In this document: piece after piece, positions 1-43,697 of the stretch
Position numbering within the stretch: position 1 is the stretch's first letter
How the letters are laid out: each line of letters opens with the position of its first letter
Source of the DNA: a virus
Direction: 5' to 3' (one strand)
Virus record (IMG/VR): IMGVR_UViG_3300012961_000002
Span: 1-43,697 of that record
DNA length: 43,697 nucleotides
Program-made: the position numbers and the translations under genes
Notes under the pieces: model-generated
Databases searched by the model: none
What the model was told of the DNA's origin: nothing
The model's input: the letters and a program-made list of their open reading frames with translations, nothing else

Positions 1-123
1 ACTCTCAACGATAACGGGTACTTCCTTGTATCCCGCACCGTTCTGTACACCGCACCCGTAGATACCGCAGCGCCTAGCGCTGCGTCCCTGGACAGCCCTG
101 GGGTTGCGTGGACCATTCTGGGC
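1..123. repeat. terminal overlap; nt 1-123 are identical to nt 43575-43697 (circular closure or assembly overlap)
   Basis: Direct comparison of both window ends gives 123/123 identical. The repeat lies inside the major tail protein ORF. Confidence 0.95.
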
Positions 124-16791: not shown

Positions 16792-17044
16792 CGTGGTTCT
16801 CCTCTTCCGGTTCGAGGTTCTCAATCACCATCTTGTACTGCTCACCGGTCCCTGCCTGGACCAGTAAGAGCACGGACTTGGCCGTCGTGGGCGTGGCCAC
16901 ATCCGTGACCGTGAACACGTCCGTGTCGGCATCGCCGGTCACCAAGTTCAGGCCTGTGATGATGAGTCGCCCTGCTTCCTGGACCGGCGCCAGCGTCTCG
17001 TTGAACTGCCTCTCCAGATCTTCGTTCGAGATGAACTCAGACAT
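16781..17044 (-). CDS. hypothetical acidic protein (87 aa)
   Basis: ORF track entry. The ATG follows GGGAAGGAAGG. Confidence 0.6.
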   Translation of the reverse strand: MSEFISNEDLERQFNETLAPVQEAGRLIITGLNLVTGDADTDVFTVTDVATPTTAKSVLLLVQAGTGEQYKMVIENLEPEEENHDGE

Positions 17045-17561
17045 GGACCTTCCTTCCCTGGTTGATGTTGTTCATGCAGTCGGTCAGCGCTCGAACCGCG
17101 GCCTCGATCACGTCTCGGTCAACCGGTGCCGTGTTCCCGTACACGAACTCCGCGTAGATCAGCCTGGAATACACCGGCAGAACCCGAGCCAGATAGCGGC
17201 ACCCCTCGTCGAGATCGGGCAAGTTACCGGTGATCTTGGTCCGGCTATTGATCAGAGCCCCGGACTTGAGGAGGTATCGAACCTCGCCTACAGAGTATAG
17301 GCTGTTTCCGGTGGCGAATTCGAAGTCGGCCACCTCAGAGGCCACGAGAGCCCGAGCCTGATCAACGAGGTACTTTTTGCGCCGGTACTCGGGCATCGTG
17401 TCCAGGGCCGTGAACCGTTCATCGTCGAACAGCTTGAGCGCCAGATCTCGGGCAAGGTCATCGGCCTCTGCTACTGAGGGCCAGTCAGCATGTACCCGTT
17501 CCGCTGCTTCGCGGATCTCGGGGCCATACTTGGTGAACAACCGGACCTCCTCTGTCATCAT
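17037..17561 (-). CDS. hypothetical protein (174 aa)
   Basis: ATG 17561 overlaps the upstream stop as ATGA. Confidence 0.55.
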   Translation of the reverse strand: MMTEEVRLFTKYGPEIREAAERVHADWPSVAEADDLARDLALKLFDDERFTALDTMPEYRRKKYLVDQARALVASEVADFEFATGNSLYSVGEVRYLLKSGALINSRTKITGNLPDLDEGCRYLARVLPVYSRLIYAEFVYGNTAPVDRDVIEAAVRALTDCMNNINQGRKVHV

Positions 17562-17767
17562 TCTTCCAGCCGTTCCCACTCGGGGTAGCAGACCTCTACG
17601 TAGCCTCCGGGCCCCCGGGACCGCTTCGCGGCTCCCACCGTGGAGTACGGGCCCGCGTACCGGGTCTCCCAATGGAGCTTACCTTCTCGGTCCGTCCAAC
17701 GATACTCGGTTACGGCCCGGTACATCGGGTCATCGCCCTTAACATAGGCTCGGGTTGCGCTGCTCAT
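17558..17767 (-). CDS. hypothetical protein (69 aa)
   Basis: ORF track entry, translationally coupled to its neighbours. Confidence 0.55.
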   Translation of the reverse strand: MSSATRAYVKGDDPMYRAVTEYRWTDREGKLHWETRYAGPYSTVGAAKRSRGPGGYVEVCYPEWERLEE

Positions 17768-27518: not shown

Positions 27519-27959
27519 CTACTCTGCCGACCAATTGTCACGAAGCTTGCGCTTGGCCCGCTCCCAGGCGTTTCGTACACCCTTAGGCGTGGTGTTCAGA
27601 TGGCGAGCCAAGGGACCCGTGTAGTTTTTGCCGTCTGGGATCGGGGATCCGTCCACGATAGCTGACACTACACGTCGTTCCTGCTTTGTCAAGCCCGCGA
27701 TCTCTGTTACCTCGGTCACGAATTCGCGTGAGTCATCGACCGGGGTGACGGGCTCAGCTTCCAGCTCATCGAAGACATGATCGTCCCCATACGTGAGCAC
27801 TCGCTTACCGGAGGCGTCCCACATGTCATCGCGCATACGCCCTAGGATGTCGTCTGCGGTCGCGGAGCTGGGGTCCAAGCCCTTCTTGAGGCATGCCCCC
27901 TCCCACGGCGTACCGTGGATCTCGTGGGCCAGAACCCAGGCCACGCGCAGGTTGATCAT
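27519..27959 (-). CDS. sigma-70 region-4-like / LuxR-type HTH protein
   Basis: C-terminal LTKQERRVVSAIV...LARHLNTTPKGVRNAWERAKRKLR resembles the region 4.2 HTH. Confidence 0.45.
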   Translation of the reverse strand: MINLRVAWVLAHEIHGTPWEGACLKKGLDPSSATADDILGRMRDDMWDASGKRVLTYGDDHVFDELEAEPVTPVDDSREFVTEVTEIAGLTKQERRVVSAIVDGSPIPDGKNYTGPLARHLNTTPKGVRNAWERAKRKLRDNWSAE

Positions 27960-28218: not shown

Positions 28219-28740
28219 TCAAGCCGCAGTCCATCCGTTTTCGGGGGCGTAGAGGACCGGGTACCCGTACGTCTTGGAGCACATTTCCTGGTAGGTCAGA
28301 GGCCCGAACATCGGAGCCCCATGGATGACCTCATCAGCCCATCGCCACCGGTCCAGAATGTACGCCCGGCTCTTGAAGACTTGGGCCTCGTAGGTCCACA
28401 CCCCCATGAACTTGGACCACGGGTATTCTTCCCGCATCCGTTCGATCACTCTGCGTACGGTTCGGCCTGAGTACACGAAGTCATCGGCGATGATGTACTC
28501 CAGGCCCACGGAGCCTTCGATCCGATAACAAGAGTGTGTCGATTGGTCATCGGGCTTGCGCACGATGGCGAACTTAGAACCTACGGTCGGGGCCACCCGA
28601 GAAACGTACACGGTTCCCGAAAGCCCGGTCCCGACGATGGTGTCAAAACTCACATCGGCAGTCCCAGCCCGGAACTCGGAGAGTAGTTTCCGATTGCTGT
28701 ACGTGAGGGCCTTGCTAAAGTAGCTATCACCCGCGCTCAT
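28219..28740 (-). CDS. type I phosphoribosyltransferase-fold protein
   Basis: PRPP-binding signature EYIIADDFVYSGRTV, plus upstream FDTIVGTGLSGTV...FAIVRK. First gene of the leftward unit. Confidence 0.65.
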   Translation of the reverse strand: MSAGDSYFSKALTYSNRKLLSEFRAGTADVSFDTIVGTGLSGTVYVSRVAPTVGSKFAIVRKPDDQSTHSCYRIEGSVGLEYIIADDFVYSGRTVRRVIERMREEYPWSKFMGVWTYEAQVFKSRAYILDRWRWADEVIHGAPMFGPLTYQEMCSKTYGYPVLYAPENGWTAA

Positions 28741-28775
28741 CCCTTGATCCTCTCTGCGTAGGCGGTGTGAGGGCC

Positions 28776-28804
28776 ACTCTGCCAGGGCTCGAAGGCAGTG
28801 TCAA
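28776..28804 (-). promoter_or_regulatory. leftward early promoter candidate TTGACA-N17-CAGAGT
   Basis: The -35 element is at 28799-28804 and the -10 at 28776-28781 (minus strand), 35 nt upstream of the SD and ATG of 28219..28740. Confidence 0.4.
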
Positions 28805-28834
28805 GCCGTATCCCCCAAACGGGTGATGGCCAGA

Positions 28835-28877
28835 TACGCGACCTGGGAAAAGGGGCGATTACCCTCTATAAGTAGGG
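28835..28877. repeat. 43-bp direct repeat, copy 1 (DR1a)
   Basis: tacgCgacctgggaaaaggggcgattaccctctataagtaggg matches 29045-29087 with 1 mismatch. Confidence 0.9.
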
Positions 28878-28904
28878 GTAGGGGTTAAGGGATAGGGGAT
28901 AGGG
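28873..28904. repeat. G-tract iteron-like cluster (tagggg tagggg ttaaggg atagggg ataggg)
   Basis: Five TA(G)3-4 units spaced 6-8 nt apart, read directly from the sequence. Confidence 0.6.
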
Positions 28905-28906
28905 CA

Positions 28907-28921
28907 TAAGAACCTTAAACC
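28907..28921. repeat. 15-bp direct repeat, copy 1 (taagaaccttAaacc)
   Basis: Matches 28966-28980 with 1 mismatch. The two copies flank the palindromes. Confidence 0.8.
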
Positions 28922-28927
28922 TAAGAT

Positions 28928-28955
28928 CTAGAGAACCCCTTAAGGGGTTCTCTAG
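28928..28955. repeat. 28-bp perfect palindrome ctagagaaccccttaaggggttctctag
   Basis: Self-complementary over all 28 nt. Followed immediately by a 10-bp palindrome gttctagaac (28956-28965). Confidence 0.9.
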
Positions 28956-28965
28956 GTTCTAGAAC

Positions 28966-28980
28966 TAAGAACCTTGAACC
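28966..28980. repeat. 15-bp direct repeat, copy 2 (taagaaccttGaacc)
   Basis: See copy 1 at 28907-28921. Confidence 0.8.
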
Positions 28981-29044
28981 CTGGTTCCTGGATCTTATCC
29001 CCTGTACCTGAAGTTAGGGCCCCGTAACGTACAGTAGCTAAAAG

Positions 29045-29087
29045 TACGTGACCTGGGAAAAGGGGCGATTACCCTCTATAAGTAGGG
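29045..29087. repeat. 43-bp direct repeat, copy 2 (DR1b)
   Basis: See copy 1 at 28835-28877. The copies are spaced 210 bp apart. Confidence 0.9.
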
Positions 29088-29210
29088 ACAAGTTACACGA
29101 GTCCAGCGCACGTACACGTATAAGCGTGGACCTGAACATGATCCTTACACCAGATCCTCGGGTTGAGCCGTTGAGGTTCTGTTCCTCCTCTCCGGAGCCT
29201 CCGGCTCCCC

Positions 29211-29260
29211 GAGGGTCTTCAAACTTGGAAGAGGTCTGGCGAGTCGACACCAGAAACCGG
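29211..29260 (+). pseudogene. decayed tRNA copy (D-arm and anticodon-arm similarity to the Leu-CAG gene)
   Basis: The remnant ...caaacttggaagagg-tctgg-cgagtcgaca-ccagaa aligns with caactggcagaggcg-tctgg-ctcagac-ccagaa in the Leu gene. No T arm follows. Confidence 0.35.
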
Positions 29261-29349
29261 CCGTTGGGGTGATGACCTTTGACATCAAGGGGAGACATTG
29301 AGACCAGTCTCATGCCGCTGGTTTAGATCTTTCTGATGGTGTGACACAT

Positions 29350-29421
29350 TGGCCAGTAGCTCAACGGTAGAGCAAGGGACTGTTAATCCCTTAGATGTAG
29401 GTTCGAATCCTGCCCGGTCAG
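29350..29421 (+). tRNA. tRNA-Asn (GTT)
   Basis: Acceptor tggccag/ccggtca (one A:C), D stem gctc/gagc, anticodon stem aggga/tccct with loop ctGTTaa, T arm gtagg-ttcgaat-cctgc. Confidence 0.75.
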
Positions 29422-29494
29422 CTTGTTGATCCGACCTTGATCAAGTCGGGGAGACCCAGTCTAGGCGTCCTGGGATATCAAAGATTGCCAGTAA

Positions 29495-29566
29495 CGAAGA
29501 TTAACTCAGTTGGAAGAGTGCCGGTGTGAAGTACCGGATGCACAGGTTCGAATCCTGTATCTTCGG
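29495..29566 (+). tRNA. tRNA-Phe (GAA)
   Basis: Acceptor cgaagat/atcttcg, D stem actc/gagt, anticodon stem ccggt/accgg with loop gtGAAgt (G32, G37), T arm acagg-ttcgaat-cctgt. Confidence 0.75.
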
Positions 29567-29568
29567 CG

Positions 29569-29600
29569 TAGGTGAGAGATTCGGGTTCGAATCCCGGGCC
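29569..29600 (+). pseudogene. tRNA 3' fragment (variable region, T arm and a truncated acceptor)
   Basis: gtgagagat-tcggg-ttcgaat-cccgg-gcc. There is no room for a 5' half after tRNA-Phe. Confidence 0.4.
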
Positions 29601-29606
29601 ACTAGG

Positions 29607-29739
29607 TACCAGTGGGACTAGCTTAAGGGGTAAAGCGCTCACCGTTTAGCATGGATTGTGCCGCCCGGGAGGCTGGGCACCGGCTTCGAAACCCGGGATG
29701 GTAGGCATTGACCTAGGGGTTCGACTCCTCCACTCTCCG
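29607..29739 (+). pseudogene. degenerate tRNA-like segment (a good D arm, a long GC hairpin, two T-arm-like motifs, no complete cloverleaf)
   Basis: D arm ta-gctt-aaggggta-aagc. Hairpin tgccgcc...ggc-ggca. T-like motifs ccggc-ttcgaaa-cccgg and agggg-ttcgact-cctcc. I could not find matching acceptor or anticodon stems. Confidence 0.3.
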
Positions 29740-29836
29740 CAGGGTCCATCGCCACAGTTGATCCTCCCGTAGAGGCATCTGAGGTAGCTCCTGAGTCATC
29801 CAACGTGGTGCTCTGGCGGTGTTGACCCTTTACCTT

Positions 29837-29919
29837 GGATTGGTGTAGCTGGGATCTACGGCGCCGCTGCTAACGGCGTAGCCCTTAGGGGCTCGAAGGT
29901 TCGATTCCTTCCCTTTCCG
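29837..29919 (+). tRNA. tRNA-Ser (GCT), long variable arm
   Basis: Acceptor ggattgg/cctttcc (tandem U:U at 4:69 and 5:68), anticodon stem cgccg/cggcg with loop ctGCTaa, variable arm agccc-ttag-gggct, T arm gaagg-ttcgatt-ccttc. Confidence 0.6.
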
Positions 29920-29921
29920 CT

Positions 29922-29988
29922 GGAACTAGGCGGGTCTTAGGGCCCTGGATAGCCGACACTGACTCCGGTAAGAGCAGGGTCTAGTTCC
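29922..29988 (+). pseudogene. 67-nt tRNA-like element with a perfect 7-bp terminal helix but no canonical T loop
   Basis: ggaacta (29922-29928) pairs with tagttcc (29982-29988). The interior does not fold into D, anticodon and T arms. Confidence 0.3.
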
Positions 29989-29992
29989 TTAA

Positions 29993-30064
29993 CGCTCAGT
30001 GACCGAGAGACTAGGTGCCTGGTTGCAACCCAGGTTTACGCCGGTTTGAATCCGGCCTGAGTGT
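29993..30064 (+). tRNA. tRNA-Cys (GCA)
   Basis: Acceptor cgctcag/ctgagtg, anticodon stem cctgg/ccagg with loop ttGCAac, T arm gccgg-tttgaat-ccggc. Confidence 0.7.
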
Positions 30065-30068
30065 CCAA

Positions 30069-30137
30069 CCCGAGGCATCTGGGATGCGGCGCGGCTGTAA
30101 ACCGCTACCGAGTCAGGTTCGATTCCTGGTCGCGGGA
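30069..30137 (+). tRNA. tRNA-Tyr (GTA), atypical 69-nt form
   Basis: Acceptor cccgagg/tcgcggg (one mismatch). The D region is only 14 nt (catc-tgg-gatg hairpin). Anticodon stem cgcgg/ccgct with loop ctGTAaa, T arm tcagg-ttcgatt-cctgg. No long variable arm. Confidence 0.5.
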
Positions 30138-30208
30138 CTAGGCCCTGACGAGGGTCCCTAGGGCTAACGTGGCGCCTAGGCGGGATGAGCCCGACATAGC
30201 TCTCTTAT

Positions 30209-30282
30209 GCCCCTCTAGCCCAACTGGCAGAGGCGTCTGGCTCAGACCCAGAAGGTTCGGAGTTCGAATCTCCGGAGGGGTA
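30209..30282 (+). tRNA. tRNA-Leu (CAG), class-I-like (short variable region)
   Basis: Acceptor gcccctc/gaggggt, D stem gcc/ggc, anticodon stem tctgg/ccaga with loop ctCAGac, 5-nt variable region, T arm cggag-ttcgaat-ctccg, discriminator A. Confidence 0.6.
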
Positions 30283-30381
30283 CTTAACGTAGGATTGACG
30301 GCGACCAGATCCAGCCTCAGTGTCCGAATGGTCCGGATACTGCCTACGTGCGGATTGACCCACCGCTTAATCAGGGTCTCT

Positions 30382-30452
30382 GCCTTCCTCGTCTAATGGA
30401 AAGACTCGGGCGTCGTATCCCCGAAATGTCGGTTCGATTCCGTCGGTTGGCT
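30382..30452 (+). tRNA. tRNA-Thr (CGT)
   Basis: Acceptor gccttcc/ggttggc (tandem U:U), D stem gtct/agac, anticodon stem cgggc/ccccg (C:C at 31:39) with loop gtCGTat, T arm gtcgg-ttcgatt-ccgtc (one U:U). Confidence 0.5.
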
Positions 30453-30524
30453 CTAGGACCCGGTAAGCCCTGACTAAGAGCTGAGTTTGGGTCCAAGCGT
30501 CTAGCCCACGCTGAACGGGCCTCT

Positions 30525-30595
30525 GGTCCATTGGTGTAGCGGTAACACATGTGCCCCTCAAGCATATGTCCTCGGTTCGAATCCGGGATGGATCA
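30525..30595 (+). tRNA. tRNA-Glu (CTC) with C33
   Basis: Acceptor ggtccat/atggatc, D stem gtgt/acac, anticodon stem tgtgc/gcata with loop ccCTCaa (position 33 is C at 30556), T arm ctcgg-ttcgaat-ccggg. Confidence 0.65.
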
Positions 30596-30616
30596 CTTAA
30601 CCTGAGAGGAAGACCC

Positions 30617-31321
30617 GTGCGAGCCCTTCGACTCTTCCTAGCGCTGGTGCTTGGCCTCACGATGGTCATTCCCGGGGCTGAGATGGCCTCTGCGGGCACG
30701 GGAGGGTGGTGCCAGGGTCTCTACACCGGAGCACCGGTCCTGGACCTTCTGGGCGACTCTCAGACGGCAAGTGGCTCGGTCTCTGCCGAAGATCAGCGCT
30801 GGCCCTCAGTGCTGGGAGCTTCACTTCAGTCGGATGGCGCCCCGGGAACTCAGGTCTGGGTCGGTGGCGCCATCGCAGGATCGGCTACCGCCGACTACCT
30901 GCCCGGAGCGAAGTACTCGGATCATATCGAGTTCACGTCTCATCAGCCCAACCTGATCACCCTGGGATGGGGAACCAATGACTGGGCAGGCGGAGTCCCC
31001 GTCGAGACGTTCAGGGCGCAATACCAGACGATCATCGATCGAATCCGGGCTCTTAGCTCTGGCTCCACGGTCGTCATCATTCACATGCCTTGGGTGTACA
31101 ACGAGGAACTCACGAGTACCCGTGCTCCCCAGGCCGACTACCTGAACGTTGAAAAGGATCTCGCCCGTGATAACGGGCTCAAGTTCTTCGGATCGGAATT
31201 CTACTTCCCGGGAAATGATCCGTACAGTTTCAAGTCTCCCCCGGACCAGGTGCACATGACAGCGCTTGGACAGTGGGTGTTCTACTCAGCTTTCCGGAGC
31301 TTCTTGCTCGGGATGTGCTGA
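30617..31321 (+). CDS. secreted SGNH/GDSL-family hydrolase (esterase)
   Basis: GTG 30617 lies 4 nt after GAGAGGAAG. Signal-peptide-like RALRLFLALVLGLTMVIPGAEMASA. SGNH blocks LLGDSQT (I), GWGTNDW (III) and DQVH (V). The upstream part of ORF 30551.. lies inside tRNA-Glu and was discarded. Confidence 0.7.
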   Translation: MRALRLFLALVLGLTMVIPGAEMASAGTGGWCQGLYTGAPVLDLLGDSQTASGSVSAEDQRWPSVLGASLQSDGAPGTQVWVGGAIAGSATADYLPGAKYSDHIEFTSHQPNLITLGWGTNDWAGGVPVETFRAQYQTIIDRIRALSSGSTVVIIHMPWVYNEELTSTRAPQADYLNVEKDLARDNGLKFFGSEFYFPGNDPYSFKSPPDQVHMTALGQWVFYSAFRSFLLGMC

Positions 31322-31325
31322 TCGT

Positions 31326-31394
31326 TAGGGAACGCATGATGCGAGCCTGGTCTCCAAAACCGGGTGCCAGTGAGTTTGACTCTCACTTCCCTTG
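31326..31394 (+). tRNA. tRNA-Trp (CCA), atypical 69-nt form
   Basis: Acceptor tagggaa/ttccctt (U:U at 1:72). 14-nt D region (cgca-tga-tgcg hairpin). Anticodon stem ctggt/accgg with loop ctCCAaa, T arm gtgag-tttgact-ctcac. Confidence 0.5.
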
Positions 31395-31398
31395 CCAA

Positions 31399-31470
31399 TG
31401 GCGCTTAGTTCAGTGGAAGAACAACCGGCCTACACCCGGTATGTCGAGGGTTCGAATCCTTCAGTGCCAA
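31399..31470 (+). tRNA. tRNA-Val (TAC) with C33
   Basis: Acceptor tggcgct/agtgcca, D stem gttc/gaac, anticodon stem accgg/ccggt with loop ccTACac (position 33 is C at 31430), T arm gaggg-ttcgaat-ccttc. Confidence 0.7.
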
Positions 31471-31518
31471 CTTGGTCCCGTTGCAATGCGCCCCTAAGGG
31501 CGGTAACCAGGGACCTTT

Positions 31519-31592
31519 ACCCGATTAGCTCAGAGGAAAGAGCCCTTGGCTACGAACCAAGGCGGTCGCAGGTTCGAATCCTGTATCGGGTT
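31519..31592 (+). tRNA. tRNA-Arg (ACG)
   Basis: Acceptor acccgat/atcgggt, D stem gctc/gagc, anticodon stem cttgg/ccaag with loop ctACGaa, T arm gcagg-ttcgaat-cctgt. Confidence 0.8.
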
Positions 31593-31596
31593 CCAT

Positions 31597-31669
31597 ACCT
31601 TCGTAGTTCAGCGGACAGAACACCGGTTTCCTAAACCGGGTGCCGTAGGTTCGAATCCTACCGAGGGTG
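31597..31669 (+). tRNA. tRNA-Arg (CCT)
   Basis: Acceptor accttcg/cgagggt, D stem gttc/gaac, anticodon stem ccggt/accgg with loop ttCCTaa, T arm gtagg-ttcgaat-cctac. Confidence 0.8.
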
Positions 31670-31726
31670 CGTAGAGAACATAGTTGCCGGTAAAATCCAG
31701 AGCATGAACCGGACGTAGAAGTACAT

Positions 31727-31799
31727 GGGTCTATAGTTTCAACGGTAAAACCCCGGACTCTTAATCCGTGAGATCTAGGTTCGAATCCTAGTAGGCCTA
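31727..31799 (+). tRNA. tRNA-Lys (CTT)
   Basis: Acceptor gggtcta/taggcct, D stem gttt/aaac, anticodon stem ccgga/tccgt with loop ctCTTaa, T arm ctagg-ttcgaat-cctag. Confidence 0.75.
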
Positions 31800-31800
31800 C

Positions 31801-31873
31801 TGCGGGGTAGTGTAATCGGTAACATGACAGTCTCATAAGCTGTGCGATGCGGGTTCGAGTCCCGTCCCCGACA
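31801..31873 (+). tRNA. tRNA-Met (CAT) (or Ile2 if lysidine-modified)
   Basis: Acceptor tgcgggg/ccccgac (1:72 and 2:71 unpaired), D stem gtgt/acat, anticodon stem acagt/gctgt with loop ctCATaa, T arm gcggg-ttcgagt-cccgt. Confidence 0.6.
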
Positions 31874-31915
31874 CCTTTCCCCTGCACCGAGGGAGACGAA
31901 ACTATCGGGCACTAT

Positions 31916-31987
31916 ATGGTACGAGGAAGATGGTAATCCGCTCCGTTCGGGCCGGAGAGATACTGGGTTCGACTCCCAGGTGCCAGA
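31916..31987 (+). tRNA. tRNA-Pro (CGG)
   Basis: Acceptor atggtac/gtgccag (A:G at 1:72), D stem gga/tcc, anticodon stem ctccg/cggag with loop ttCGGgc, T arm ctggg-ttcgact-cccag. Confidence 0.6.
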
Positions 31988-32018
31988 CTAGGTCCCCCGT
32001 GATAAGCGGGGGCCGCAA

Positions 32019-32089
32019 TACCGGTTCGTCTAATGGCAAGATACCAGGCTCTGAACCTGGGGACTGAGGTTCGACCCCTTGACCGGTAG
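32019..32089 (+). tRNA. tRNA-Gln (CTG)
   Basis: Acceptor taccggt/accggta, D stem gtct/agat, anticodon stem ccagg/cctgg with loop ctCTGaa, T arm tgagg-ttcgacc-ccttg. Confidence 0.75.
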
Positions 32090-32091
32090 CT

Positions 32092-32162
32092 CTGTGATTA
32101 GTTCAATGGAAGAATATCCGCCTGTGACGCGGAAGACGTGGGATCGATACCCACATTACAGT
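32092..32162 (+). tRNA. tRNA-His (GTG), no encoded G-1
   Basis: Acceptor ctgtgat/attacag, D stem gttc/gaat, anticodon stem tccgc/gcgga with loop ctGTGac, T arm gtggg-atcgata-cccac (A at position 54). The nt at -1 is T. Confidence 0.65.
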
Positions 32163-32166
32163 CCAT

Positions 32167-32239
32167 GCTGTTCGCGTGTCCGGTTGACCGAAGTTCTCTG
32201 ATAAGGAACTTGTGCTAGGTTCAACTCCTAGGAGCAGTA
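32167..32239 (+). tRNA. tRNA-Ile (GAT)
   Basis: Acceptor gctgttc/gagcagt (two G:U), anticodon stem gttct/ggaac with loop ctGATaa, T arm ctagg-ttcaact-cctag. Confidence 0.65.
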
Positions 32240-32325
32240 CTGTCCCGAGTGATCCTCGGGCGAGTGGGCGCGAAATAGTCCCCCAGTTGGCTAGATCTGG
32301 GTTATCAAATGATTCTAGCTTCAAT

Positions 32326-32397
32326 GGTCCGTTAGCTCAACGGTAGAGCACCATTCTGTCAAGATGGACGGCGCGGGTTCGAATCCCGTACGGATCG
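32326..32397 (+). tRNA. tRNA-Asp (GTC)
   Basis: Acceptor ggtccgt/acggatc, D stem gctc/gagc, anticodon stem ccatt/gatgg with loop ctGTCaa, T arm gcggg-ttcgaat-cccgt. Confidence 0.8.
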
Positions 32398-32436
32398 CAA
32401 GCCTGGCCTAGGGGTAACTCCCTGGTTGGGCGCTTT

Positions 32437-32508
32437 GGGGTTGTAGCTCAAATGGTAGAGCACCGGCGTTGCATACCGGGTGAACGGGTTCGATTCCCGT
32501 CTTCTCCA
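32437..32508 (+). tRNA. tRNA-Ala (TGC)
   Basis: Acceptor ggggttg/cttctcc (G3:U70 present; tandem U:U at 5:68 and 6:67), D stem gctc/gagc, anticodon stem ccggc/accgg (C:A at 31:39) with loop gtTGCat, T arm acggg-ttcgatt-cccgt. Confidence 0.6.
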
Positions 32509-32546
32509 CAGGGGCTCACTGCTGCGCGCAAGCATAGTCCCACAAT

Positions 32547-32620
32547 GGGGTATTGATGTTTAACGGATAGCATGTCAGTCTTCCAAACTGAATGTGTGGG
32601 TTCGAATCCCGCATACCTCA
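32547..32620 (+). tRNA. tRNA-Gly (TCC)
   Basis: Acceptor ggggtat/atacctc, D stem atgt/gcat, anticodon stem tcagt/actga with loop ctTCCaa, T arm gtggg-ttcgaat-cccgc. Confidence 0.75.
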
Positions 32621-32629
32621 CTTCTAGTT

Positions 32630-32661
32630 CCCGCCCGTGCTCCGGTACTGGGCGGGCTTTT
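32630..32661 (+). terminator. intrinsic terminator closing the tRNA array
   Basis: cccgccc (32630-32636) pairs with gggcggg (32650-32656), followed by ctttta. Confidence 0.65.
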
Positions 32662-32676
32662 ACTTATGGAGGCCGC

Positions 32677-32808
32677 ATGTGCTGGTACGATGACCTCTGC
32701 TCATGCACTGATGGTGCGGACGAACTGATTCGCACTTCGGATGTCGAGGACTTCGAACTAGGCACAGCGTGTGATCTGAATGACACAGATTGTGAATCTT
32801 GTCAGTAG
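32677..32808 (+). CDS. very acidic Cys-rich miniprotein (43 aa)
   Basis: ATG lies 4 nt after GGAGG. Sequence MCWYDDLCSCTDGADELIRTSDVEDFELGTACDLNDTDCESCQ. GC3 is only about 50 percent, so coding status is uncertain. Confidence 0.4.
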   Translation: MCWYDDLCSCTDGADELIRTSDVEDFELGTACDLNDTDCESCQ

Positions 32809-32810
32809 GC

Positions 32811-32839
32811 TTGACACAGGGGCCTGGGGGTGGTACCCT
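32811..32839 (+). promoter_or_regulatory. rightward promoter candidate TTGACA-N17-TACCCT
   Basis: The -35 element is at 32811-32816 and the -10 at 32834-32839. TTGACA is followed by CAGGGG, the same element seen in the leftward promoters. Confidence 0.4.
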
Positions 32840-32941
32840 CCCCGGGTCTGTTCGCGCAGCCCGTGGTGTTCTCCCGACACGCTCGCTCCCAGAGCTTTAT
32901 GCCTGTGTGTCATCCCCGACTACGCTCTGTGAGAGGCAGCC

Positions 32942-43571: not shown

Positions 43572-43697
43572 ATGACTCTCAACGATAACGGGTACTTCCT
43601 TGTATCCCGCACCGTTCTGTACACCGCACCCGTAGATACCGCAGCGCCTAGCGCTGCGTCCCTGGACAGCCCTGGGGTTGCGTGGACCATTCTGGGC
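43572..43697 (+). CDS. major tail protein (5' part; continues at nt 124 after removing the duplicated 123 nt)
   Basis: ATG 43572 lies 8 nt after GGAG. Nt 43575-43697 equal nt 1-123. Confidence 0.7.
   Translation, partial: MTLNDNGYFLVSRTVLYTAPVDTAAPSAASLDSPGVAWTILG
43575..43697. repeat. terminal overlap, second copy
   Basis: Identical to nt 1-123. Confidence 0.95.

Follow-up and report, generated by a model that had tools for sequence, protein, structure and literature searches.

In several bacteriophages, recognition of the −35 element at middle or late promoters is replaced by an early phage activator, as with T4 MotA/AsiA (at the MotA box), Mu Mor and C, and P2 Ogr. Specificity pairs of protein and DNA are likewise familiar from region 4 of extracytoplasmic function (ECF) sigma factors and their −35 elements, from the RNA polymerases (RNAPs) of T7, T3 and SP6 and their promoters, and from the lambdoid immunity modules. 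Small stable RNAs co-transcribed with a phage tRNA cluster are exemplified by T4 species 1 and 2 (rnaC and rnaD), and the T7 primary origin combines the tandem promoters phi1.1A and phi1.1B with an AT-rich region. Here we describe a locus that resembles each of these in part: the gap between two divergent transcription units of a virus, IMG/VR record IMGVR_UViG_3300012961_000002, whose positions 1 to 43,697 form the stretch analysed (the window). We read this gap as a compact divergent transcription-control region that would combine a leftward early promoter (P_left), a 146-aa early protein acting on two copies of a repeated DNA module (DR1a and DR1b), and a rightward unit of structured RNA and tRNAs starting at DR1b; on the comparative sequence evidence given below we put the probability of this reading at about 0.6.

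The first and last 123 bases of the window (1–123 and 43575–43697) are identical, so the window is a metagenomic phage contig that closes into a circle of about 43.57 kb, with 60% GC; the arbitrary start of the circularised assembly falls inside tail genes. It encodes PolA, a DnaB-like helicase, a primase, an exonuclease, endonuclease VII, a large terminase, tail genes and an endolysin, and neither an integrase nor partition genes (parA/parB, parABS) were found among the window open reading frames (ORFs) scanned. PolA is 62% identical to that of cluster A mycobacteriophages, and we propose that the phage is a lytic-looking, cluster-A-like actinophage in which the gap lies near the right genome end. 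The gap separates leftward genes, which span from 28740 down to about 9.8 kb, from a rightward block that begins at 29350 with 20 tRNA genes and continues with structural genes. Near and distant DNA searches of cultured phages returned no match for the region or its RNA. A close IMG/VR relative (L001) was found via the neighbouring exonuclease, and 12 further loci with the intergenic region were fetched via homologs of the 146-aa protein. In all fetched relatives a tRNA array diverges from the early genes, and the intergenic regions of the 13 related metagenomic phages, oriented as in the window, have one common architecture. In two more distant homologs (L042 and L043, 38–42% identity) this architecture was not found within 4 kb, and the more distant exonuclease-based relatives (L002–L015) are without the tRNA array and without the RNA.

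One element of the architecture is a pair of modules. The original prediction had described a 43-bp direct repeat in the gap, and this is correct: the two copies, DR1a and DR1b, are identical at 42 of 43 positions and lie 210 bp apart, their 26-nt core has exactly two exact occurrences in the window (0 expected in shuffles), and the window holds no DR1-type site beyond these two. Every relative carries two rightward copies of a module of about 40 nt, 104–246 bp apart (more where an ORF is inserted), each built of an upstream A-tract, an invariant (c)TGACC(T/A)GG, some 20 lineage-specific bases and a TA-rich box (TATAAG, TATAGG or TATAAT) that often has TG before it. Over the first 30 nt, modules are 86% identical within a genome versus 60% between genomes. 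Downstream of copy b, the distance from the TA-rich box to the conserved 5' sequence of an RNA, GTTACACGA, is constant in all relatives. Copy a is followed in L035 (1391–1645) and L036 by an 84-aa rightward ORF with CxxC motifs and in L039 (about 130–300) by a helix-turn-helix ORF of about 55 aa whose stop codon overlaps the TGACC of copy b, and in L032 the TA box of copy b is followed directly by an inserted HNH ORF that brings a ribosome-binding site of its own. Given the shared orientation, the TA-rich boxes and the ORFs or RNA that start downstream, rightward promoters are the simplest reading of DR1. Since DR1 fits only a −10-like box (often with TG upstream), we propose that these promoters are factor-dependent. 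The earlier statement that no convincing rightward promoter serves the tRNA array is thus probably wrong, as the −10-like TATAAG of DR1b stands at a fixed distance from the conserved RNA in every relative. The description of the gap as a master regulatory hub fits, with a conserved leftward promoter and two rightward promoter-like modules within 300 bp.

Our candidate for the factor is the product of the third gene of the leftward early operon, a 146-aa protein with 58 homolog clusters, all metagenomic; tblastn against cultured phages gave no match. In an AF2 model (pLDDT 76) it has four C-terminal helices whose best PDB matches by Foldseek are sigma region 4 of M. tuberculosis SigD, SigL and SigK, of S. 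coelicolor SigR, and of Taq sigmaA on −35 DNA, with TM-scores normalised to the target of 0.6–0.77 and probabilities of about 1. The C-terminal domain is predicted to have a sigma-region-4 fold. The N-terminal part consists of three short helices and a low-confidence linker, and Pfam and NCBIfam gave no match for region 2; because no region 2 is recognisable, the protein is not called a sigma factor here. Among the structured segments, the predicted recognition helix (residues 121–134) varies most across 31 aligned homologs, with a mean entropy of 1.69 bits versus 0.08–0.9 in its flanks, and it is distributed as a mosaic: the three proteins closest to that of the window, 79–90% identical outside the helix, differ in it, and proteins that are only 66–70% identical overall share it.

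Two separate segments of this protein co-vary with two separate parts of the module. First, the class of the recognition helix matches DR positions 10–19 (sub-site A) in 13 of 13 genomes, with five classes. Second, residues 41–53, which read either (M/L)WD or (M/L)T(Y/H)xGG, match DR positions 22–29 (sub-site B), which read either TTACCC or T.CGGTGC. Beyond the 13 genomes, the homolog P0005 has the helix 'MGTALVWKHW' and the segment 'MWDA', and the homologs P0003 and P0004 show a further helix type, 'TTPN(A/T)LRV(A/T)W'. In Mantel tests on the 13 genomes the helix is correlated with positions 10–19 (rho 0.39, reached by 22 of 3000 permutations) and not with positions 22–29 (rho −0.01); residues 41–53 are correlated with positions 22–29 (rho 0.76, reached by 0 of 3000 permutations) and not with positions 10–19 (rho 0.04). 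This double dissociation of two segments and two sub-sites suggests that the 146-aa protein most likely binds DR1, and direct bipartite recognition of both DR1 copies is the most likely account of the co-variation. The suggestion in the original prediction that the repeats are binding sites for an early regulator, for example a sigma-4-like protein encoded nearby, is thereby supported, both by the predicted fold and by the co-variation of the two segments with DR1. The coordinates of the modules, of the gene and of the other features are collected in Table 1.

Table 1. Features of the divergent region and its surroundings (window positions).
Feature	Position	Strand	Remarks
146-aa early protein gene	27519..27959	-	small N-terminal domain, linker, C-terminal sigma-region-4-like helix-turn-helix (predicted); proposed to bind DR1a and DR1b
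P_left, leftward early promoter	28776..28804	-	-35 TTGACA 28799-28804, 17-nt spacer, -10 CAGAGT 28776-28781
Inverted repeat ATCCCCC-N4-GGGTGAT	28810..28827	.	between the divergent promoters; candidate operator
DR1a, upstream module copy	28835..28877	+	GACCTGG 28840-28846 invariant; sub-sites A and B; -10-like TATAAG 28867-28872
DR1a sub-site A	28847-28856	+	helix-coupled; GAAAAGGGGC
DR1a sub-site B	28859-28866	+	TTACCCTC
Tandem repeat TAGGGGA, 5.3 copies	28873..28908	+	found by TRF; the "iterons" of the original prediction
Inter-module hairpin, window version	28907..28980	.	15-nt repeats flanking 28-bp and 10-bp palindromes
DR1b, downstream module copy	29045..29087	+	sub-site A 29057-29066, sub-site B 29069-29076, TATAAG 29077-29082, predicted start ~29089
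Structured RNA, ~134 nt	29088..29221	+	5' hairpin with conserved loop AUAAGCG; long 3' hairpin with apical loop UCCUCCUCUCC
Window-specific insert, 128 nt, RNA to tRNA-Asn	29222..29349	+	terminator-like hairpin 29301-29324, then T-rich tail to 29333
20-tRNA gene array	29350..32621	+	body of the proposed DR1b-started rightward unit; same array and order in relatives
Intrinsic terminator closing the tRNA unit	32630..32665	+	CCCGCCC...GGGCGGG, then CTTTTACTT
Promoter TTGACA-N17-TGG-TACCCT toward the inferred physical genome end	32811..32862	+	motif 32811-32839, end ~32862

Like MotA/AsiA, Mor, C and Ogr, the system that we propose would comprise a small early protein that carries its DNA-binding domain at the C terminus, a site that overlaps with the −35 element or takes its place, promoters with only a −10-like box, and an early-to-later cascade. 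Unlike MotA, the protein has a predicted sigma-region-4-like fold and not a double wing, and unlike all four systems there are two sites per genome within one intergenic region and a bipartite recognition in which both sub-sites have diversified. As in the known specificity pairs, there are discrete specificity classes, changes in the helix-turn-helix residues predicted to contact bases go with changes in the DNA element, and mosaic reshuffling is seen. In contrast to ECF sigma factors, no sigma-2 domain is recognisable and the sub-sites lie about 11 bp apart centre to centre, compared with about 23 bp for −35 and −10 elements; the lambdoid comparison ends at the absence of a lysogeny module, which argues that this is not an immunity system.

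The leftward promoter given in the original prediction is present on the minus strand just as described. Its box, TGTCAA plus CANNGT/TANNNT, has identical spacing in 12 aligned relatives, with an invariant −35 and conserved A and T of the −10, so that hexamers resembling −35 and −10 stand within 16–19 bp of each other at a conserved position, as expected of a sigma-70-type promoter; a simple promoter scanner missed it because its −10 begins with C. In L001 the insertion of an HNH gene displaces P_left. Just upstream of P_left the relatives share an inverted repeat with the consensus TATC(C/A)CCC-N3/4-GGG(G/T)GA. The window's own version occurs once and is not significant alone.

The events that we propose for this region run as follows. 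P_left would act as a host sigma-A-type promoter and start the leftward early operon, including the gene for the 146-aa protein. This protein would bind both DR1 modules, its recognition helix reading positions 10–19 and residues 41–53 reading positions 22–29. Since sub-sites A and B lie immediately upstream of the TA-rich −10-like box, the 146-aa protein would control rightward initiation, most likely by providing the missing −35 recognition as an activator or sigma-4 surrogate and, less likely, as a repressor placed over the promoter. DR1a would start a short purine-rich non-coding segment (a slot that holds a small ORF in some relatives) that may be ended or insulated by the palindromic hairpin, and at DR1b would begin a transcript that joins the structured RNA of about 134 nt to the 20-tRNA array, from which RNase P, acting at tRNA-Asn, would release the RNA in most relatives.

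The original prediction treated the gap as 600 bp of control DNA, and the intergenic region is real; its right-hand 250 bp, however, are not spacer and contain a structured RNA. Between the window and L001 the RNA block is identical at 133 of 134 positions, and its flanks, even tRNA-Asn, have diverged. Its folding z-score is −6.3 on the plus strand versus −2.3 on the minus strand, and in an alignment of 13 sequences 15 of the 30 predicted pairs show compensatory double changes. Paired cells amount to 94.6%, compared with 30–50% when partners are slid and 82.6% in shuffles, and 0 of 500 shuffles reach the observed value. Invariant G-U pairs are compatible with the plus strand only. Across relatives hardly any change is seen in the apical loop, in the loop AUAAGCG or in the 5' GUUACACGA. 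A covariance model matches each relative exactly once, in every case at this position and on the strand of the tRNAs, and gives no match in more distant phages. Two frames are open across the block, but the covariation and indels that are not multiples of three argue that both are spurious, and we rejected a protein-coding gene. In a search of Rfam 15 only tRNA-Asn reaches its gathering threshold, with the other best matches at chance level; the RNA has no match in cultured phages or in further IMG/VR contigs, and a pattern scan of GTDB genomes with the RNA core gave 0 matches, which points to the lack of a host or prophage copy. By these comparative measures the block is a structured non-coding RNA of a previously undescribed family. 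It ends 3–4 nt before tRNA-Asn in 9 of the 13 genomes, so it would form the leader of the tRNA transcript, to be released by RNase P. At this junction the window contains an insert that has no counterpart in those nine genomes; the insert carries the TTGACA at 29279, and L033, L034 and L035 have other, unrelated inserts there. Inside the tRNA array of the window lies a gene for a GDSL-family esterase (30551–31321), present in L028 and absent in L029, which may be a lysis or cell-envelope enzyme.

RNAs near an early promoter have been reported before in a related lineage: cluster A phages produce abundant, unexplained RNAs of about 500 nt leftward from P_left, near the right genome end (2017, PMC5712189). 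The RNA described here is likewise non-coding and beside the early promoter P_left near the right end; unlike those RNAs it points rightward, lies behind a promoter-like module of its own and is joined to a tRNA array, and it shares no detectable sequence with them. With T4 rnaC and rnaD it has in common a structured form of about 130 nt, a place in a tRNA-cluster unit and possible release by tRNA-processing enzymes. It differs from them in being the 5' leader of the array with a near-invariant pyrimidine loop, and no relation in sequence or structure is known. As in the CcsR 'CCUCCUCCC' RNAs (Rfam RF02791) and actinobacterial 6C RNA, an exposed conserved CCUCC loop could pair with purine-rich ribosome-binding sites; the match to CcsR1 is at chance level (14.8 bits against a gathering threshold of 65.3, E = 1.1), 6C gives no match, and architecture and size differ from both. 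Whether the loop pairs with ribosome-binding sites or mimics the 3' end of 16S rRNA is speculation. A bolder account, which we consider rather unlikely, makes the 146-aa protein a free-standing sigma-4 surrogate that would redirect host RNAP to exactly two promoters, docking in place of or beside region 4 of sigma-A and using a bipartite, fast-diversifying DNA code. On the same account the RNA, through its anti-Shine-Dalgarno-like loop (UCCUCCUCUCC), would act on translation or as an anti-defence decoy that, together with the tRNA array, sequesters ribosome-binding sites or presents a mimic of the 16S 3' end to a ribonuclease toxin.

The spacer between the modules varies among relatives. It is 63–205 nt long, its plus strand is 54–70% purine, its GC in relatives is 0.44–0.62, and it always holds a perfect GC-rich hairpin of lineage-specific sequence. 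At equivalent positions the hairpin is GGGGCGCAGCCCC in L029, GGGGCGAAGCCCC in L030 and L038 and GGGCCCCCGGAGGGCCCC in L001; that of L028 is nearly identical to the window's, with the loop changed. In the window the 28-bp perfect palindrome (28928–28955) is present as stated, unique and with 0 expected in shuffles, as are the abutting 10-bp palindrome GTTCTAGAAC (28955–28964) and the 15-nt repeat on either side (28907–28921 and 28966–28980; 14 of 15 identical). The palindrome forms a 12-bp stem with a 4-nt loop and is followed by GTTCTAGAAC without a T-run; it lacks the U-tract of an intrinsic terminator and is missing from the output of a terminator scanner. In Actinobacteria, termination may nonetheless occur at hairpins that lack a U-tract. 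The TA-GGGG units do form a tandem repeat, with a period of 7; it begins at the predicted DR1a start site and resembles an expansion of the TAGGG with which the module ends on its 3' side. A comparable purine-rich array of 7–8 nt units occurs only in L028, and the other relatives have dispersed AAGAAC, AGGA or TAGAA words. An inverted ggggataag unit is also present, at 28994–29002, one base from where it had been placed, and the near-symmetry claimed for the region is loose, the palindrome centre (28941.5) being offset by about 20 bp from the point midway between the two DR1 copies. Four CTAG tetranucleotides fall within 40 bp in and around the palindrome (28920–28965), and CTAG- and AGAAC-containing words recur in the spacers of relatives. 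A G-quadruplex in the TAGGGG array is possible in the window and is not conserved, and this candidate was rejected.

These elements had suggested an origin of replication, and a lytic origin activated by transcription, of the kind known from the T7 primary origin or lambda ori, at which the 146-aa protein or transcription itself opens the duplex or primes synthesis, would be compatible with promoters at DR1. The gap is indeed the most AT-rich part of the contig, with the lowest GC of any 300-bp bin (0.493 at 28801–29100) next to the proposed binding sites, and the cumulative GC-skew minimum of the contig falls in it. The region further offers two tandem, identical promoter-like elements, an AT-rich spacer, a perfect hairpin and, as the co-variation suggests, a site-specific protein recognising both flanks. 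The T7 primary origin is similar in that two tandem phage-specific promoters of one direction (as proposed here for DR1) lie by the most AT-rich DNA; in T7, unlike in this gap, both promoters precede the AT-rich region and are used by an RNAP that the phage itself encodes. Several observations count against an origin. The turn in GC skew coincides with the switch of coding strand and, because of that switch, is uninformative about an origin. Iteron origins have at least three direct repeats of about 17–22 bp, helically phased and conserved with an initiator; the units here are 7 nt long. On the conservation that the original prediction had made its test, the results divide: the architecture is kept in 13 related genomes, but the 7-nt "iterons" are absent from most of them, and the palindrome is conserved as a hairpin position and not as a sequence. 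The spacer varies in length and can contain ORFs, and no initiator-type protein was identified beside the gap. In cluster A parABS phages a non-coding RNA immediately upstream of the central parA is needed for maintenance of the plasmid prophage (Wetzel 2020, PMC7157519), so that related phages do use non-coding RNAs for prophage replication. Those RNA-based origins are central, next to parA, and serve prophage maintenance; the present RNA differs in location, neither parABS nor an integrase was found among the ORFs scanned here, and the RNA has no DNA similarity to cultured phages. We therefore regard an origin as improbable and, as originally argued from the repeats, as unsupported; what is supported is a real and conserved region that is a regulatory hub with a new RNA and a co-evolving pair of regulator and site.

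A different objection concerns the co-variation itself. DR1a and DR1b might be ordinary host-RNAP promoters, made identical within each genome by gene conversion and correlated with the protein only as parts of one co-inherited block. Direct repeats 104–246 bp apart can homogenise by recombination, the gene for the 146-aa protein lies only about 1 kb away, and GTGACC-N16-TACCCT within the DR1 of the window resembles the sigma-A-type promoter at 32811–32839. A linked block would not lead us to expect that each of two protein segments tracks its own sub-site and not the other. Outside these segments, neither the protein nor the neighbouring RNA follows DR positions 10–19; the stretches of the protein encoded closer to DR show no relation to sub-site A and only a weak one to sub-site B (rho 0.22–0.29). 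Moreover, by the first gene of the operon the window falls in a group with L028 and L029, whose DR classes differ, and the RNA beside DR1b is nearly identical in the window and L001, though their DR classes differ as well. On these grounds simple linkage does not account for the co-variation, and we judge this alternative to be quite improbable.

The proposal of a divergent control region read by the 146-aa protein has to be held against a number of points that speak for caution. The 13 genomes are not phylogenetically independent, and with the gene so close to the sites some co-inheritance is possible; the intervening N-terminal coding part and the first gene have a different history, which counters this. 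The sigma-4 match has a Foldseek E of about 0.1, and Pfam Sigma70_r4_2 is sub-threshold (E = 0.12). In DR1a and DR1b, 23 bp separate the conserved TGACC from the TA-rich box, which is outside canonical sigma-70 spacing, and the −10-like hexamer of the modules mostly ends in G and not in T. A terminator role for the hairpin is doubtful, as it has no U-tract and precedes an ORF in L039; it may instead serve as an insulator or be a site of RNA processing. Finally, the whole case, binding and start sites included, is a comparative one.

Two other ways of reading the DR1 sequence were dropped. The 5' half of DR1 was considered as an RNA hairpin, and the inverted repeat NTGAC-N9-GTCAN exists in only about half of the lineages. 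Cluster A stoperators are 13-bp asymmetric repressor sites present in some 20–30 copies and oriented with transcription; in the window no 10–13-mer is over-represented except tRNA T-arm words, and the flanks of TGTCAAG are not conserved. A metagenome pattern scan with the DR1 consensus returned 10 single matches, all unrelated to this phage and attributable to chance.

That the repeats and palindrome form a packaging site, with the repeats as small-terminase sites, is hardly credible: the position is analogous to that in L5-like genomes, as the cluster A cos lies between P_left and the rightward genes, and PolA is 62% identical to cluster A, but the genome ends map elsewhere. Three independent full-length contigs (L033, L035 and L038) end 22–23 nt after a conserved TTGACA-N17-TG(G/T)TACCCT promoter to the right of the tRNA array, L033 (1–320 region) continues from the end point straight into the Illumina adapter AGATCGGAAGAGC, and the ends of L030 and L032 lie no more than 50 nt from that end point. 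The contig ends and the read-through into adapter place the physical terminus at about 32862, some 3.6 kb from the gap, and the cos outside it. The structural genes may be transcribed across the joined ends from the promoter at 32811–32839. Between the terminator of the tRNA array and this promoter lies a Cys-rich ORF of 43 aa (32677–32808) ending in CESCQ, which is kept as a 40–45-aa gene in relatives.

Among the neighbouring genes, the first position of the operon after P_left is highly plastic. In the window (28219–28740) it is occupied by a phosphoribosyltransferase-like gene, whose product is 173–312 aa long across relatives, and in L001 by an HNH gene instead; an IMG/VR search with the window's first leftward gene found no relative, and the gene is not conserved at this position. 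The neighbourhood is a hot spot of HNH endonuclease genes, which occur in L001 (7231–7803, between P_left and copy a), L032 (2743–3318, between copy b and the RNA) and L038 (2874–3149, where a 5' piece of tRNA-Asn is cut off by the gene and an intact tRNA-Asn follows) and also in L031, L033 and L034. Elsewhere in the window, a 211-aa protein (17037–17672) bears the PHROGs label 'sigma-K factor' (phrog_354). We rejected it as a sigma factor reading DR1: it has no sigma domain and only a sub-threshold Pfam match to Mycobacteriophage_Gp53, and the label is untrustworthy and was left unused.

Taken together, the comparison with metagenomic relatives allows a region that looked like a repeat-rich origin to be resolved into promoters, operators and an RNA. 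It provides a case, made from sequence alone, in which a DNA-binding protein and its proposed sites have evolved together in two modules that can be separated, and this separability makes the recognition rules testable by swapping the 10-bp and 8-bp sub-sites together with the matching protein segments. Such modules could supply orthogonal regulator and promoter pairs for Actinobacteria. The strongly covarying RNA is a new family fused to phage tRNA arrays, which are currently discussed as anti-defence devices, and its invariant CCUCC loop suggests a link to translation.

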